From: Candidatus Kerfeldbacteria bacterium
Lineage (GTDB): Bacteria > Patescibacteriota > Patescibacteriia > SBBC01 > CAIJZX01
Length of the DNA stretch: 64,000 nt
Assembly: GCA_963731735.1 (NCBI GenBank)
Contig: CAVSWO010000002.1
Coordinates: 192,875-256,874 of the forward strand
Direction of reading: 5' to 3'
The translations under genes were made by a program, and so were the position numbers. Shown here piece after piece: positions 55,577-58,506 of the stretch (within the stretch, counting starts at the first letter, position 1; each line of letters starts with the position of its first letter). Under the pieces are notes generated by a model, which searched no databases, had not been told where the DNA came from, and saw nothing but the letters and a program-made list of their open reading frames with translations.

Positions 55577-55651
55577 GGCCGGGTAGCCAAGTGGTAAGGC
55601 AGAGGTCTGCAAAACCTCTATTCACGGGTTCGATTCCCGTTCCGGCCTCCA
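55577..55651 (+). tRNA. tRNA-Cys (anticodon GCA), CCA encoded
   Basis: Hand-folded: acceptor GGCCGGG/TCCGGCC, anticodon stem GAGGT/ACCTC with loop CTGCAAA, T arm ACGGG-TTCGATT-CCCGT. Confidence 0.75.
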
Positions 55652-55657
55652 GGTCAA

Positions 55658-55686
55658 TTGACAACTTAAGAAACAACCGTTATAAA
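55658..55686 (+). promoter_or_regulatory. Promoter for tRNA-Gly(GCC): TTGACA-17 bp-TATAAA
   Basis: Read directly between tRNA-Cys and tRNA-Gly. Confidence 0.45.
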
Positions 55687-55698
55687 CTAGTGGTCTCG

Positions 55699-55772
55699 CG
55701 GGTATAGTTCAGTAGTAGAACGTCTCCTTGCCAAGGAGAAGGTCGCCGGTGCGAATCCGGTTGCCCGCTCCA
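55699..55772 (+). tRNA. tRNA-Gly (anticodon GCC), CCA encoded
   Basis: Hand-folded: acceptor GCGGGTA/TGCCCGC, D stem GTTC/GAAC, anticodon stem TCTCC/GGAGA with loop TTGCCAA, T arm GCCGG-TGCGAAT-CCGGT. Confidence 0.8.
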
Positions 55773-55779
55773 GATTGTC

Positions 55780-56202
55780 ATGAAGAAAGTAATTCAGAAA
55801 TTTGAGGTAAGTATCAAAGCCATGCTTTTCCGTGATGGGGGCGTGTTGATGGTTCAAAACCCTAAATCTAAAACTTGGGAATTTCCGGGCGGCCGAATTG
55901 ATGTTGGTGAGGAGAGATATGCACCAGAAGATATTCTAAAGCGAGAACTAAATGAGGAGTTGGGAGAACATATTCAATTTCAAGTTCAGGGTCTTCAAGC
56001 TTCTTGGATAATTCCATTTCGTTCGCCGCGTCTTGGTGAATACATTTATGTAACTGCTTACCTGTGTAATTTTCTAGGCGGCCAAATTACACTCAGCCCA
56101 GAACATTCGAGATTTCGATGGATAACGGCAGAAACGATAAAAGAAATTGAGTTAGTCACCGGGTATCAAAGAGTCCTAGAGAATTTCTGGAAAAACCAAT
56201 AA
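55780..56202 (+). CDS. NUDIX hydrolase, AT-rich gene embedded between tRNA-Gly and tRNA-Leu
   Basis: Nudix box GGRIDVGEERYAPEDILKRELNEELG. The start is 8 nt after tRNA-Gly and tRNA-Leu begins 12 nt after the stop. Codon usage is visibly AT-biased relative to its neighbours. Confidence 0.8.
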   Translation: MKKVIQKFEVSIKAMLFRDGGVLMVQNPKSKTWEFPGGRIDVGEERYAPEDILKRELNEELGEHIQFQVQGLQASWIIPFRSPRLGEYIYVTAYLCNFLGGQITLSPEHSRFRWITAETIKEIELVTGYQRVLENFWKNQ

Positions 56203-56213
56203 AGTAACCAATG

Positions 56214-56299
56214 GCCGGAGTGGCGGAATGGTATACGCAGGGGACTTAAAATCCCCCGCCCGTAAGGGATTGAGAGTTCGATTCTCTCCTCCGGCACCA
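56214..56299 (+). tRNA. tRNA-Leu (anticodon TAA), long variable arm, CCA encoded
   Basis: Hand-folded: acceptor GCCGGAG/CTCCGGC, anticodon stem GGGGA/TCCCC with loop CTTAAAA, long variable arm, T arm GAGAG-TTCGATT-CTCTC. Confidence 0.8.
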
Positions 56300-56357
56300 G
56301 CTTGAATAAATCAAGCTAGTTATATGTTGAATGTGGAATGGGATTATTTTTTTCGTT

Positions 56358-56741
56358 CTATGTATTTTGCTGTAAATCGAGCTCGATGCGGGTGATGATG
56401 GTTTCGAGCTTGGTCAGCATTTTGACATAGTACTGCCGAACACCAAATTTCAAGTATTTATTAATGATGTCCGGACTGACAGTATTGGTTACGAGATAAA
56501 TTGGAATATTGTCCCAGGCTGAGTTTTTCCTGACCGCCTCCATAAAATCTAATCCCGTTTTTTCTGGCATAAAGTGATCGAGCCAGATGGCGTCCAGTTT
56601 TTCAATATTTTGCAAAAAGTCCAACCCTTGTTCAACGCCCCGGGCTCCGGCCACCAAAAAGCCGTCTCGTTCCAACTTAGACTTAATCACTTCTTGGAGA
56701 AGTTCTTCGTCTTCGACTACCAGGATAGAGCGCTTGGCCAT
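56358..56741 (-). CDS. Single-domain response regulator (CheY-like receiver)
   Basis: ILVVEDEELL ... phospho-acceptor region AIWLDHFMPEKTG ... conserved K (YLKFGVRQYYVK). Confidence 0.85.
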   Translation of the reverse strand: MAKRSILVVEDEELLQEVIKSKLERDGFLVAGARGVEQGLDFLQNIEKLDAIWLDHFMPEKTGLDFMEAVRKNSAWDNIPIYLVTNTVSPDIINKYLKFGVRQYYVKMLTKLETIITRIELDLQQNT

Positions 56742-56742
56742 A

Positions 56743-58506
56743 TTAACTCTGGTTAGGGGTTAGCAGCGCCAAATGACGAGTGCCGGATTTAGCCTTCATG
56801 CCGCTCCGCGGGTAGGTAATCTGGAAGGTTGTCCCGCGGCCTTCAGCTGAATTAAATGTAATGCTCCCACCCGTGACGTCAAGGATAGACTTCGTAATAT
56901 ACATCCCGAGGCCGATACCTTCCGGCATCATTCGGGTCGCGTTAGGTGCCCGGTAAAACTTGGAAAATATGTGATCTCGTGACCCAACCGGAATACCAAT
57001 TCCGGTATCCGAGACTTCGATGATGATACTCTGATTATTATATTTCAACCGCAGCCAAATTTGACCGCCATCTGGCGTATAGCGTACCGCATTGGTCAAT
57101 AGGTTTTGAATTACCGTCCGGAGCATGGTTGAATCAACCGCCAGCGTGGGAGCGTCCTGGGCATACTCTTCGGTCAGCGTCACCTTATGCATCGGCTTGG
57201 TCATTACCTCGTTGGCAATTTCATGGAGCAATGGTTCGAGGTCCATTTTTTCGGGCGTAATCATTACTGTCCCAACTTCCAGGCGACTGGTATTCAGTAA
57301 AGCATTCACCAGCTCAACCATTCGTTGATTACTGCGATCGATTTTTTCCACTAAATCTAGTTGTCGTTTACTGAGTTTTCCCGCCACGTTATCCGTCAGC
57401 GCTTCAGTTAGCCAGCCAATAGTCGCGATCGGTGTTTGTAATTGATGCGAAGCGATTGATAGAAATTCAGTTTTCGCCTCTTCAACTTCCTTTTCGCGCG
57501 TTATATCTTCTTCAACGCCAACAAAAAATACAACGTCATTATTTTTATCGAGGATGGGGTTGATCAATATTTTCGCGACGTATTGTTGCCCGTCTTTGCG
57601 GTGATTGGTAACTTCACCAGAAAACGGTTTACGATCGTGCTTAATTACCCGCCACATCGTTTGATAAAATTCAGCCGGCATCAGCCCGCCCCATAATTTT
57701 TTTGTCCCGGCTTTTTGGCCGAGAATTTCGTTTGGTTTCCAGCCGGTCAGGTGTTCAGTCGCCGGGTTGGCATAAATTATCGTGCCGTCCGGTTCGGTAA
57801 TAACAACCTGGTCAGATACTGCGTCGACCGCCATTTTGAATTTGTGAAATTCGTTTTCGAGCTTCCGCTCATGTTCCATTTCAGTATAGGTCCGTTTTAG
57901 CTGAGCGGTATATTGCAAACTCCGTATCCATGACAAACTGACGAAAAATGCGAACAACACGAGAAACGAAGTGTTCAAACCTGGTTCATAAGGTAAATTG
58001 ACCAGGCCAAAGGCGCTGGCAATATTTACCAGGATAATCCATCCAACCATCACCAGCGACCAAAACTTTCCTTGCCGATGGCCGAGCAAAAAGAAAATAA
58101 TTATGGGATAGGGCAACATCCAAAAACGCCCGGCCTGACTGATGCCGCCCGAAACATAAGTCCACGCCACGCCGAAGGTCACGAGCCCACTCAGCACATA
58201 CACCGCAATTTTCGGCCGCCAGCGATAGACTAGAAGGTTCAATAATGTCAACAAGCTAATCAGGATTCCCATACCGCTTAACGCTTCATCTCTGGCGGCG
58301 GCGCGCCACAATAAAATTACCAGGAGTATAACGAGCAGCAAACTAAAGAGCACAAATAAATCAACCACCCGGCCTTGGCCAATTTCAATCCGGTGGGGAA
58401 TGCGGCGTTCAGGATCTATAGTGTAGGGTGTTTGTTGTTTGTTCTGTATACTCGGCATAGCCAAATTTTGCCCCTCCAGTATACCTATTTTTTCCGTACC
58501 TGACAA
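56743..58506 (-). CDS. Membrane sensor histidine kinase with PAS domain
   Basis: N-terminal multi-TM sensor, PAS-like segment, H-box LSIASHQLQTPIATI, N/G boxes (LLTNAVRYT, DTGIGIP, GIGLGMYITKSI). Confidence 0.85.
   Translation of the reverse strand: MSGTEKIGILEGQNLAMPSIQNKQQTPYTIDPERRIPHRIEIGQGRVVDLFVLFSLLLVILLVILLWRAAARDEALSGMGILISLLTLLNLLVYRWRPKIAVYVLSGLVTFGVAWTYVSGGISQAGRFWMLPYPIIIFFLLGHRQGKFWSLVMVGWIILVNIASAFGLVNLPYEPGLNTSFLVLFAFFVSLSWIRSLQYTAQLKRTYTEMEHERKLENEFHKFKMAVDAVSDQVVITEPDGTIIYANPATEHLTGWKPNEILGQKAGTKKLWGGLMPAEFYQTMWRVIKHDRKPFSGEVTNHRKDGQQYVAKILINPILDKNNDVVFFVGVEEDITREKEVEEAKTEFLSIASHQLQTPIATIGWLTEALTDNVAGKLSKRQLDLVEKIDRSNQRMVELVNALLNTSRLEVGTVMITPEKMDLEPLLHEIANEVMTKPMHKVTLTEEYAQDAPTLAVDSTMLRTVIQNLLTNAVRYTPDGGQIWLRLKYNNQSIIIEVSDTGIGIPVGSRDHIFSKFYRAPNATRMMPEGIGLGMYITKSILDVTGGSITFNSAEGRGTTFQITYPRSGMKAKSGTRHLALLTPNQS

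Follow-up and report, generated by a model that had tools for sequence, protein, structure and literature searches.

A NUDIX hydrolase gene of atypical composition between tRNA genes, probably the exchangeable cargo of a tRNA operon

The 64,000-nt stretch of contig CAVSWO010000002.1 analysed here (the window) contains eight tRNA genes identified by ARAGORN, three of which lie together on the + strand with an open reading frame (ORF) for a 140-amino acid (aa) NUDIX hydrolase, in the order tRNA-Cys, tRNA-Gly(GCC), NUDIX, tRNA-Leu(TAA). The three tRNAs score 60-67 bits in Rfam, and no other structured RNA was found between 53 and 60 kb (Rfam, E <= 1). The original prediction had placed the NUDIX gene tightly between tRNA-Gly(GCC) and tRNA-Leu(TAA), and ARAGORN, Rfam and PF00293 bear this out, with gaps of 7 and 11 nt; the tRNA-Cys at its start coordinate had been left unnamed. 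The locus is probably a tRNA operon with a cargo slot, in which the NUDIX gene would be co-transcribed with the tRNAs and released by tRNA processing and in which the allele now present in the window would be a replacement. The features are listed below; here and throughout, L-numbers (L001, L008, L160 and so on) denote homologous loci of relatives used for comparison.

54895 to 55476, + strand: gene for a 3D-domain protein, left backbone flank of the tRNA module, which it also adjoins in L164 and L161
55534 to 55562, + strand: candidate weak sigma-70-like promoter, TTGAAC-17-TACAGT, with TG two bases 5' of the -10 hexamer, ending 14 nt before tRNA-Cys
55577 to 55651, + strand: tRNA-Cys(GCA), CCA encoded (ARAGORN; Rfam 66.7 bits)
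55658 to 55686, + strand: candidate near-consensus promoter, TTGACA-17-TATAAA, ending 11 nt before tRNA-Gly
55698 to 55772, + strand: tRNA-Gly(GCC), CCA encoded, atypical allele with A18 and G55 (ARAGORN; Rfam 67.2 bits)
55773 to 55779, + strand: 7-nt spacer GATTGTC from the CCA end of tRNA-Gly to the NUDIX ATG, without a Shine-Dalgarno (SD) motif and too short for a promoter
55780 to 56202, + strand: NUDIX hydrolase gene, 140 aa, MutT/NudG/BdRppH-like single domain with low-GC codons (PF00293)
56203 to 56213, + strand: 11-nt spacer from the NUDIX stop codon to tRNA-Leu
56214 to 56299, + strand: tRNA-Leu(TAA), CCA encoded (ARAGORN; Rfam 60.1 bits)
56299 to 56327, + strand: candidate terminator-like hairpin AGCTTGA-ATAAA-TCAAGCT with a T-rich tail (terminator scan), between the convergent tRNA operon and regulator gene
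56358 to 56741, - strand: stand-alone receiver-domain response regulator, 127 aa (PF00072, E 6e-16)
56743 to 58506, - strand: membrane PAS/HisKA/HATPase_c histidine kinase (Pfam PF00512, PF02518, PAS)
58532 to 59098, - strand: uracil-DNA glycosylase (UDG) family gene, right backbone flank (PF03167, E 9e-35)

Both promoter candidates were read from the sequence. The one ahead of tRNA-Cys agrees with the consensus at 8 of 12 positions, which is under the threshold of the promoter scan, and its motif TCATGGTACAGT recurs 5' of the tRNA-Cys region in L001. The one ahead of tRNA-Gly has an equivalent 5' of tRNA-Gly in L164 (TTGACA-17-TACAAA) and is not listed by the promoter scan because the scan needs a T at position 6 of the -10 hexamer. 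Neither reading nor scanning revealed a promoter-like or terminator-like site within the 7-nt and 11-nt spacers, and the terminator-like hairpin comes after tRNA-Leu, in the gap before the regulator gene, which at 58 nt is AT-rich as originally described. The terminator scan found 6 such sites in the region versus 2.9 expected (standard deviation (sd) 2.1), so the hairpin match is weak evidence. The NUDIX gene shares its strand with the tRNA genes on its two sides, and no promoter-like or terminator-like site separates it from them, as expected of a mixed tRNA-protein operon. Similarly short spacers are present in relatives, with 9 nt (L008), 10 nt (L161 and L080) and 17 nt (L001) from tRNA-Gly to NUDIX, and 4 nt (L127), 10 nt (L008), 14 nt (L161), 19 nt (L079) and 52 nt (L080) from NUDIX to tRNA-Leu. 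As there is no room for a promoter or terminator of its own, the NUDIX gene is presumably co-transcribed with the tRNAs, which is strongly implied by the length of the 7-nt and 11-nt spacers and their conservation.

Transcription would then start at the tRNA promoter or promoters and the NUDIX sequence would form part of a tRNA precursor, from which its mRNA would be freed when the 3' end of tRNA-Gly is matured and RNase P cuts at the 5' end of tRNA-Leu, leaving a leader of ~7 nt and a trailer of ~11 nt. Translation would proceed without an SD site, as it apparently does for most genes of this genome. An SD-like motif precedes 9 of 56 window ORFs, and in several ORFs (for example 61166-62011, 28469-29413 and 27711-28412) a TAnnnT -10-like box precedes the start codon by 6-8 nt, as in TGGTACAAT-6 nt-ATG, which suggests that leaderless mRNAs may be widespread in the window.

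The position of the NUDIX gene is conserved. A gene of the same family is located just 5' of tRNA-Leu(TAA) in six sampled relatives (L001, L008, L161, L079, L080 and L127), and in three of these (L001, L008 and L161) tRNA-Gly(GCC) is also just upstream and the NUDIX protein is 41-55% identical to that of the window. The order in L001 is tRNA-Cys, tRNA-Gly(GCC), NUDIX (55%), NTPase_1, a second NUDIX and tRNA-Leu(TAA). L008, from a metagenome-assembled genome labelled Candidatus Saccharibacteria, has tRNA-Gly, 9 nt, NUDIX (43%), 10 nt, tRNA-Leu, a DUF2142/PMT_2 membrane protein gene and UDG. L160 and L161, two contigs of one sample, together have EamA, UDG, an 8.8-kb integrase island, kinase, regulator, tRNA-Cys, tRNA-Gly, 10 nt, NUDIX (41%), 14 nt, tRNA-Leu and 3D, with the tRNA module inverted relative to the window. 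In L079 and L080 a recognisable CGCT(C/T)CAGACAAA... junction is kept 5' of the ATG. The flanking UDG protein is 80% identical to that of the window in L160, 81% in L164 and 74% over its C-terminal 53 aa in L008, and in all three its gene adjoins tRNA-Leu or the two-component region. Because the arrangement recurs in relatives, a NUDIX gene in the tRNA-Gly/tRNA-Leu slot appears to be ancestral for the clade, and the tRNA operon with its slot is common to a Saccharibacteria-like clade of Patescibacteria whose genomes are very small; the usual occupant of the slot would be a NUDIX pyrophosphohydrolase, small and single-domain, that belongs to one protein family. A fresh insertion, as implied by the original prediction, is contradicted by the same arrangement in relatives, an observation that the prediction itself had named as counting against it.

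A DedA gene lies ~1.5 kb upstream of the tRNA cluster of the window. In Azambacteria-type genomes of the candidate phyla radiation (CPR; L004, L005 and L018, 5850-6414; L012, 5527-6411), tRNA-Gly(TCC) is followed, after ~70 nt or an intervening GIY-YIG gene, by a NUDIX gene of the same family, and a DedA (VTT) gene is located just upstream of this NUDIX gene. DedA, tRNA-Gly and NUDIX may constitute a deeper conserved neighbourhood.

The contents of the slot are not conserved. L164, a 477-kb contig with the same backbone as the window, has DedA, 3D, tRNA-Cys, tRNA-Gly, tRNA-Leu, UDG, EamA, Metallophos_2, DUF218 and AP_endonuc_2, with neither a NUDIX gene nor a two-component system at this locus, tRNA-Gly being separated by 18 nt from tRNA-Leu and tRNA-Leu by 11 nt from UDG. 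In L162 and L163 the slot is taken by GIY-YIG instead of NUDIX, and L080 has GIY-YIG, then a duplicated tRNA-Gly 3' end, then NUDIX, with the cassette bounded by the inverted repeat AAACTTTCGC...GCGAAAGTTT. Where present, the NUDIX occupants are 31-55% identical to that of the window and fall into deeply separated groups, one with the window and the first NUDIX of L001 (L001a), one with L008, L079 and L080, and one each for L161, which is closest to Azambacteria-type sequences (53-55%), and L127; for backbone proteins of the window, L160/L161 and L164, identities are 35-81%. The slot is thus variable among relatives that share the backbone, as the contents of genomic islands are. Duplicated tRNA-end repeats exist elsewhere, at tRNA-Arg in the window (40241-40264) and in L080, L001, L162 and L164. 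From these comparisons, the tRNA cluster clearly appears to be a site of repeated allele and cargo exchange.

The GIY-YIG gene encodes ~85-90 aa and is found right after tRNA-Gly (L080, 62-392; L162, 7400-7720, - strand; L012, 5730-5987). The cassette has the ends AAACTTTCGC ... GCGAAAGTTTGGGCGGGTCGC(C/T)CGCTCCA, regenerates or duplicates the tRNA-Gly 3' end, and looks like a homing cassette that targets tRNA ends.

The second line of evidence is composition, for which the baseline was the 60 called ORFs of at least 100 aa in the window, with a mean GC content of 0.530 (sd 0.038) and a mean GC content at third codon positions (GC3) of 0.585 (sd 0.061). The NUDIX gene has a GC content of 0.404 and a GC3 of 0.338, where 0.546 is expected from its amino acids and the codon usage of the window (z -5.3), and by codon log-likelihood (z -6.2) it is the most deviant gene in the window despite its short length. 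The AT-rich codon usage noted originally is therefore real and is the strongest outlier in the window. Both A (0.19 to 0.33) and T (0.22 to 0.33) are raised at third positions. In an outside control of 83 loci with members of this protein family, the GC3 of the NUDIX gene follows that of the flanking genes closely (r 0.93), with a mean NUDIX-minus-flank difference of +0.02 (sd 0.067) that is never below -0.18; the difference in the window is -0.25. The NUDIX of L161 has a GC3 of 0.70, close to that of its host (0.69-0.76), in the same arrangement, and position in the slot therefore does not itself force AT-richness.

The tRNA-Gly gene adjoining the NUDIX gene is also unusual. Its T loop has TGC instead of TTC (GUGC for GUUC in the Rfam alignment), the gene reading GGUGCGAAUCC where the consensus is GGUUCGAAUCC, its D loop has UAG for UGG (A18), and the universal tertiary pair of G18 with pseudouridine-55 is altered on both sides. 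L164, L001 and L162 share one allele, identical along its whole length, to which the partial copies from L160, L161, L008 and L080 also correspond as far as they were read; the window gene departs from this allele at 10 of 75 positions. Since six of the ten differences constitute three compensated stem pairs (7-66, 27-43 and 28-42), the remainder being G18 to A, U55 to G and changes at T-loop positions 59 and 60, the window tRNA-Gly is most simply read as an allele that diverged long ago and still works, and not as one in decay. The tRNA-Cys differs from that of L164 at 2 of 75 positions and from those of L160, L001 and L162 at 10-16 of 75, and the tRNA-Leu differs from that of L164 at 2 of 87 and from those of other relatives at 20-26 of 87, so that relative to L164 there are 10 changes in 75 positions of tRNA-Gly versus 4 in 162 of tRNA-Cys and tRNA-Leu (Fisher p 0.002). 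A 5' fragment of a window-type tRNA-Leu is present in L162 upstream of its own tRNA-Leu. The tRNA alleles appear to be mosaic, and any of these genomes may have been donor or recipient. The region 7590-7830 of L164 looks like a nested tRNA, an intact window-type tRNA-Cys inside the inverted repeat GCACGAGTTTGGCCG / CGGCCAAACTTGTGC, and beyond the repeat are pieces of an L160/L001-type tRNA-Cys, namely its 5' part and its 3' end (CCCGTGGCCTCCA).

On balance, we favour the interpretation that the window NUDIX gene is a xenologous replacement, by a homolog from a relative of lower GC content, of an earlier occupant of the slot and not a new insertion. This is based on a GC3 deviation that is unmatched in the 83 loci, the host-like GC3 of the L161 gene, the diverged occupants of the slot and the odd tRNA-Gly, an allele possibly imported together with the NUDIX gene. 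The closest sampled NUDIX, in L001 (55% identity), is on a contig with a coding GC3 of ~0.37-0.47. The horizontal acquisition at a tRNA hotspot that had been proposed thus survives in part: the foreign-looking NUDIX codons, the turnover in the slot and the tRNA fragments in L164 and L162 agree with it, but it holds neither as a fresh insertion, given L001, L008 and L161, nor for the two-component system, given its synteny in L160.

Several points weigh against the cargo-slot account and the replacement within it. Co-transcription and processing are read from spacing alone, and the NUDIX ORF is not flanked by repeats, an integrase or any other mobility signature: no att-like direct repeat of a tRNA end and no inverted repeats were found around it (53000-60000), and there is no integrase or recombinase gene at 53-61 kb, the single ORF of the integrase family seen in the window being that at 28469-29413. 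The NUDIX of L079 has a GC3 of 0.39 beside a gene at 0.67, which could point to selection and not transfer. The donor is outside the sample, and with the closest NUDIX only 55% identical, recency of transfer is not demonstrable. The incongruence between NUDIX and flanks is based on seven loci and a 140-aa protein and does not amount to a formal phylogenetic test, and some of the divergence could stem from old paralogs lost differentially, the L001 slot having two NUDIX genes. Halves of an L160/L001-type tRNA-Cys flank the window-type tRNA-Cys of L164, and the tRNA-Gly anomaly may reflect mosaicism of L164 and not of the window. Substrate specificity is left unassigned by the protein models, every NCBIfam equivalog being far below its cut-off.

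Vertical descent of the NUDIX gene, with its AT-rich codons resulting from local constraint or mutation in a highly transcribed tRNA operon, is the best of the alternatives, although we consider it unlikely. Candidate causes are selection for an unstructured, SD-less mRNA with a short leader that spares tRNA folding, low translation via rare codons, and transcription-associated mutation. The arrangement is old and conserved, and the GC3 contrast in L079 would fit. The NUDIX mRNA is also the least structured in the 441-nt set, at -94 kcal/mol versus -120 to -182 for 12 full-length controls, and folds worse than its dinucleotide shuffles (z +1.8 and +1.55; 16 controls, mean z -0.72, sd 1.05). 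Fold z values of homologs are, however, inconsistent (L001a +1.1, L008 +1.2, L079 -0.7, L080 -0.5 and L001b, the second L001 gene, -1.3), and the L161 gene, between the same tRNAs with spacers of 10 and 14 nt, has the GC3 of its host. The excess of both A and T at third positions leaves no clean strand-specific deamination signature, and the NUDIX protein, 41% identical in the nearest backbone relative, is close to the bottom of the range of the flanking genes (35-80%).

A third possibility, more doubtful still, is that the NUDIX protein is functionally tied to the RNAs with which it is co-transcribed, as an RppH-like 5'-pyrophosphohydrolase or decapping enzyme that acts on 5' ends of tRNA precursors or mRNAs, which would account for its persistent linkage to tRNA genes. 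Such an activity is compatible with the cargo-slot account of the locus and its history. The ORF matches PF00293 over residues 10-135 (46.7 bits, cut-off 21.1, E 4.2e-12) and has the Nudix box G38-x5-E44-x10-R55-E56-L57-x-E59-E60-x-G62, in which the catalytic REx2EE, invariant in 24 homologs, is kept, the loop is 3 residues longer than the canonical one (Gx5Ex10RE versus Gx5Ex7RE) and the final U position is Glu. All 28 family-invariant and all 7 nearly invariant positions are retained. The AlphaFold model (mean predicted local distance difference test score 92.8; predicted template-modelling score 0.86) has the alpha/beta/alpha sandwich of NUDIX enzymes, and in a Foldseek search of the PDB the best 50 of 440 matches (E <= 0.001) are all NUDIX-fold enzymes.

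The eight best Foldseek matches are chains of Bdellovibrio BdRppH (E 4e-10, template-modelling score 0.68-0.80, 27-29% identity), and BdRppH is also second in a profile search of the PDB (E 1.9e-10). Here, however, CDP-Chase ranks above it, and the margins are small, with CDP-Chase, NudI, MutT2, CTP pyrophosphohydrolase, E. coli RppH (from rank 16 in Foldseek) and Ap4A hydrolase all within about one log of E-value. None of the equivalog models was reached, with scores of 18-23 bits versus cut-offs of 116-259 for RppH (NCBIfam PRK00714 variants), 20.4 versus 154 for YtkD/BsRppH (TIGR02705), 31.9 versus 97.9 and 28.1 versus 148 for MutT (TIGR00586 and PRK10776), and 38.8 versus 156 for NudG (PRK10546). 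The window family resembles BdRppH/NudG/MutT-type single-domain hydrolases (PDB 3EES, 2RRK and 5ZRC) in its ~140-aa length, fold and REx2EE, but differs from them in the three-residue insertion in the Nudix box, an N-terminal QKFEV(S/G)(L/I)K strand of its own and an LSxEH motif.

Linkage to tRNA-Leu(TAA) in seven loci, and the related NUDIX ~70 nt after tRNA-Gly(TCC) in Azambacteria, would favour a role connected to RNA. Gene order is, however, broadly kept among relatives, which makes linkage alone weak evidence, and L164 does without a gene in the slot. The family has members in CPR bacteria, Planctomycetota and Hyphomicrobiaceae, with direct tRNA adjacency in the CPR members only; in Hyphomicrobiaceae and Planctomycetota the nearest tRNA, at some loci, is a tRNA-Ser ~640-680 nt downstream. 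The homolog P0002, with no tRNAs nearby, is uninformative on this point. The NTPase_1 gene paired with NUDIX in L001 speaks rather for nucleotide housekeeping, and the rank of BdRppH rather for RNA. On the cargo-slot account, the most likely function is that of a housekeeping enzyme of the MutT/NudG/BdRppH type, a pyrophosphohydrolase acting on nucleotides or RNA 5' ends.

A phage or viral origin of the NUDIX gene was considered and rejected for lack of evidence. A tblastn search of 50,697 phage records returned only generic NUDIX matches of at most 34% identity, and in IMG/VR no NUDIX relative exceeds 41%, over part of the sequence, and the 3' half of the window tRNA-Gly has no exact counterpart.

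A stronger form of functional coupling, in which the tRNA-Gly/NUDIX/tRNA-Leu unit would be a bacterial case of tRNA punctuation, is improbable. The BdRppH-like NUDIX, made from a processed, near-leaderless mRNA excised from a tRNA precursor, would act on RNA 5' ends (triphosphates or nucleotide caps) in organisms heavily dependent on leaderless, SD-less translation, the slot would be an integrase-free cassette site, and the tRNA-Gly with A18 and G55 would be specialised for a role outside translation. The tRNA-Gly recalls the staphylococcal non-proteogenic tRNAGly, in which TGC or TGT replaces TTC in the T loop and which has been described as a lineage confined to staphylococci (PMC7826273). 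The window tRNA-Gly likewise has TGC in its T loop and a position 55 that cannot become pseudouridine, together with an altered D loop. In contrast, its anticodon is GCC and not UCC, its organism is Patescibacteria-like, and its T-stem pairs are those of the canonical allele of its relatives and not of the staphylococcal class.

On the original prediction, the whole of 55.6-58.5 kb, NUDIX and two-component system together, would be a single low-GC islet acquired horizontally at a tRNA hotspot. We regard this, too, as improbable. The position, opposite strand and domains of the response regulator and PAS kinase were correctly described: a kinase with HisKA and HATPase_c domains adjoins a receiver protein, which makes the pair a two-component system, and 1-kb windows at 56-58 kb have a GC content of ~0.455 versus ~0.53 overall. 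The pair is, however, no comparable low-GC outlier. The low overall GC of both genes stems mostly from second codon positions and hence amino acid content. The regulator has an unremarkable GC3 of 0.547, and the GC3 of the kinase is mildly low at 0.517, versus 0.585 expected, and is matched by several window genes that are as deviant (for example 1620-5729 and 14580-18427). Because the regulator is normal and the kinase only mildly low and matched by unrelated genes, the islet is essentially the 423-nt NUDIX ORF and its spacers and does not extend over 55.6-58.5 kb; the atypical composition by which genomic islands are recognised is found in the NUDIX ORF only. Other low-GC 1-kb stretches, at 4001-5000 (0.452), 15001-16000 (0.436) and 23001-24000 (0.470), are described as being as low as the two-component region or lower; they lie within or close to two large ORFs (1620-5729 and 15518-18427) and ORF 23179-23883.

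The distribution of the two-component system in relatives points the same way. In L160, regulator (71% identity), kinase (54%) and UDG (80%) are syntenic with the window, the first two within the range of backbone proteins (47-80%) and with a host-like GC3 of 0.72-0.77. Kinase matches with a taxon name are all from Patescibacteria except for one weak Bacteroidia match (29%). In the window, NUDIX gene and two-component system are split by tRNA-Leu, are on opposite strands and are ~0.2 apart in GC3, and the NUDIX gene sits in an ancestral slot. In favour of one islet, L164, with the same backbone, lacks both, L008 has the DUF2142/PMT_2 membrane protein gene between tRNA-Leu and UDG, and an 8.8-kb integrase island lies beside the kinase in L160. 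As the two-component system is absent from the tRNA-Leu/UDG junction in L164 and L008, this junction appears to be a second variable spot; the system itself is best regarded as old resident DNA of the lineage of the window, and not as part of a recent low-GC import. The L160 island (1199-9904, ~8.8 kb, between UDG and kinase) is absent from the window and carries small hypothetical genes, an alcohol dehydrogenase, an HTH_17 protein and a phage-type integrase, with a GC content of 0.484 and a GC3 of 0.481 versus 0.66-0.77 for neighbouring genes.

The kinase matches P0025 at 100%, and because the database version has 571 aa, its start is probably an internal Met near 58458. The product of the 3D gene is a 100% match to P0145, of which the database version has 167 aa, also from an internal Met; its homologs are named '3D domain-containing protein' and are all from Patescibacteria. 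These two neighbours, from the same 822,872-bp contig, are present in a collection of 15 billion proteins, in which no sequence identical or nearly identical to the window NUDIX was found, and the NUDIX ORF was therefore probably never called in the source annotation. That it is a decaying or spurious frame between tRNAs, as this absence and the atypical codon usage might suggest, is very improbable, given a frame intact over 140 codons, retention of the 28 invariant and 7 nearly invariant positions including the catalytic residues of the Nudix box, a confident structure model, and homologs in the same place in six other loci.

Elsewhere in the window, too, protein genes often closely adjoin tRNA genes. 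An ORF with an MGMT-type DNA-binding domain (PF01035; 46383-46763) overlaps the start of a same-strand tRNA-Gly(TCC) by 15 nt, and a weakly VKOR-like membrane ORF (40292-40747) is located between tRNA-Arg(TCG) and tRNA-Pro(TGG) on the same strand. The tRNA-Arg(TCG) (40029-40105) is followed by a GC-rich element of ~135 nt (40106-40265) that ends ...GTTGCCAGCGGCAAGTCGTCGCAACCCAGG and after which the last 24 nt of the tRNA-Arg, including CCA, are exactly duplicated (40241-40264). There is one copy of this element in the window, and it has no Rfam match. Related copies are present in L001 (357-425 and 2354-2461) at tRNA-Cys and tRNA-Leu, again with duplicated tRNA ends; the upstream tRNA-Leu copy in L001 is without CCA and the downstream fragment has CCA.

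With the cargo-slot account, the locus provides a compact case of gene-content turnover inside a tRNA operon of CPR bacteria, in which the slot is either empty or carries a NUDIX gene from one of several lineages, a GIY-YIG cassette or NUDIX-NTPase-NUDIX, and no integrase is present. Conserved position and foreign composition can coexist if the occupant is replaced, and a gene apparently missed by automated annotation is flagged.

No description of a tRNA-NUDIX-tRNA operon was found in the literature, and the locus is best compared with three better known arrangements. With tRNA-linked genomic islands it shares variable content beside tRNAs, cargo of atypical composition, partial tRNA duplications in relatives and, in L160, an integrase island. 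It differs from them in that the window ORF has no integrase, att repeat or mobility gene, the cargo is ~0.4 kb inside one operon, and most relatives have a gene of this same family in the slot, which argues for replacement and not novel acquisition.

The thrU-tyrU-glyT-thrT-tufB operon of E. coli and Salmonella is a mixed tRNA-protein operon (PMC6134099). There, as here, a protein gene is downstream of same-strand tRNAs and behind a tRNA promoter, and its mRNA must be separated by processing. The window ORF, in contrast, has tRNAs on both sides, spacers of 7 and 11 nt and no SD site, and its cargo is not a translation factor but a NUDIX hydrolase that is dispensable and exchangeable between lineages. 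In the polycistronic transcripts of mitochondria, tRNAs serve as punctuation, with RNase P and tRNA 3'-end processing defining the mRNA ends. The window ORF similarly abuts tRNAs on both sides and processing would give a nearly leaderless mRNA; unlike in mitochondria, this is a single ORF on a bacterial chromosome, the processing is deduced, and other window genes have ordinary intergenic regions. The locus thus fails two defining features of a genomic island, is probably a mixed tRNA-protein operon and resembles tRNA punctuation, of which, if co-transcription and processing occur as proposed, it would be a tidy bacterial analogue.

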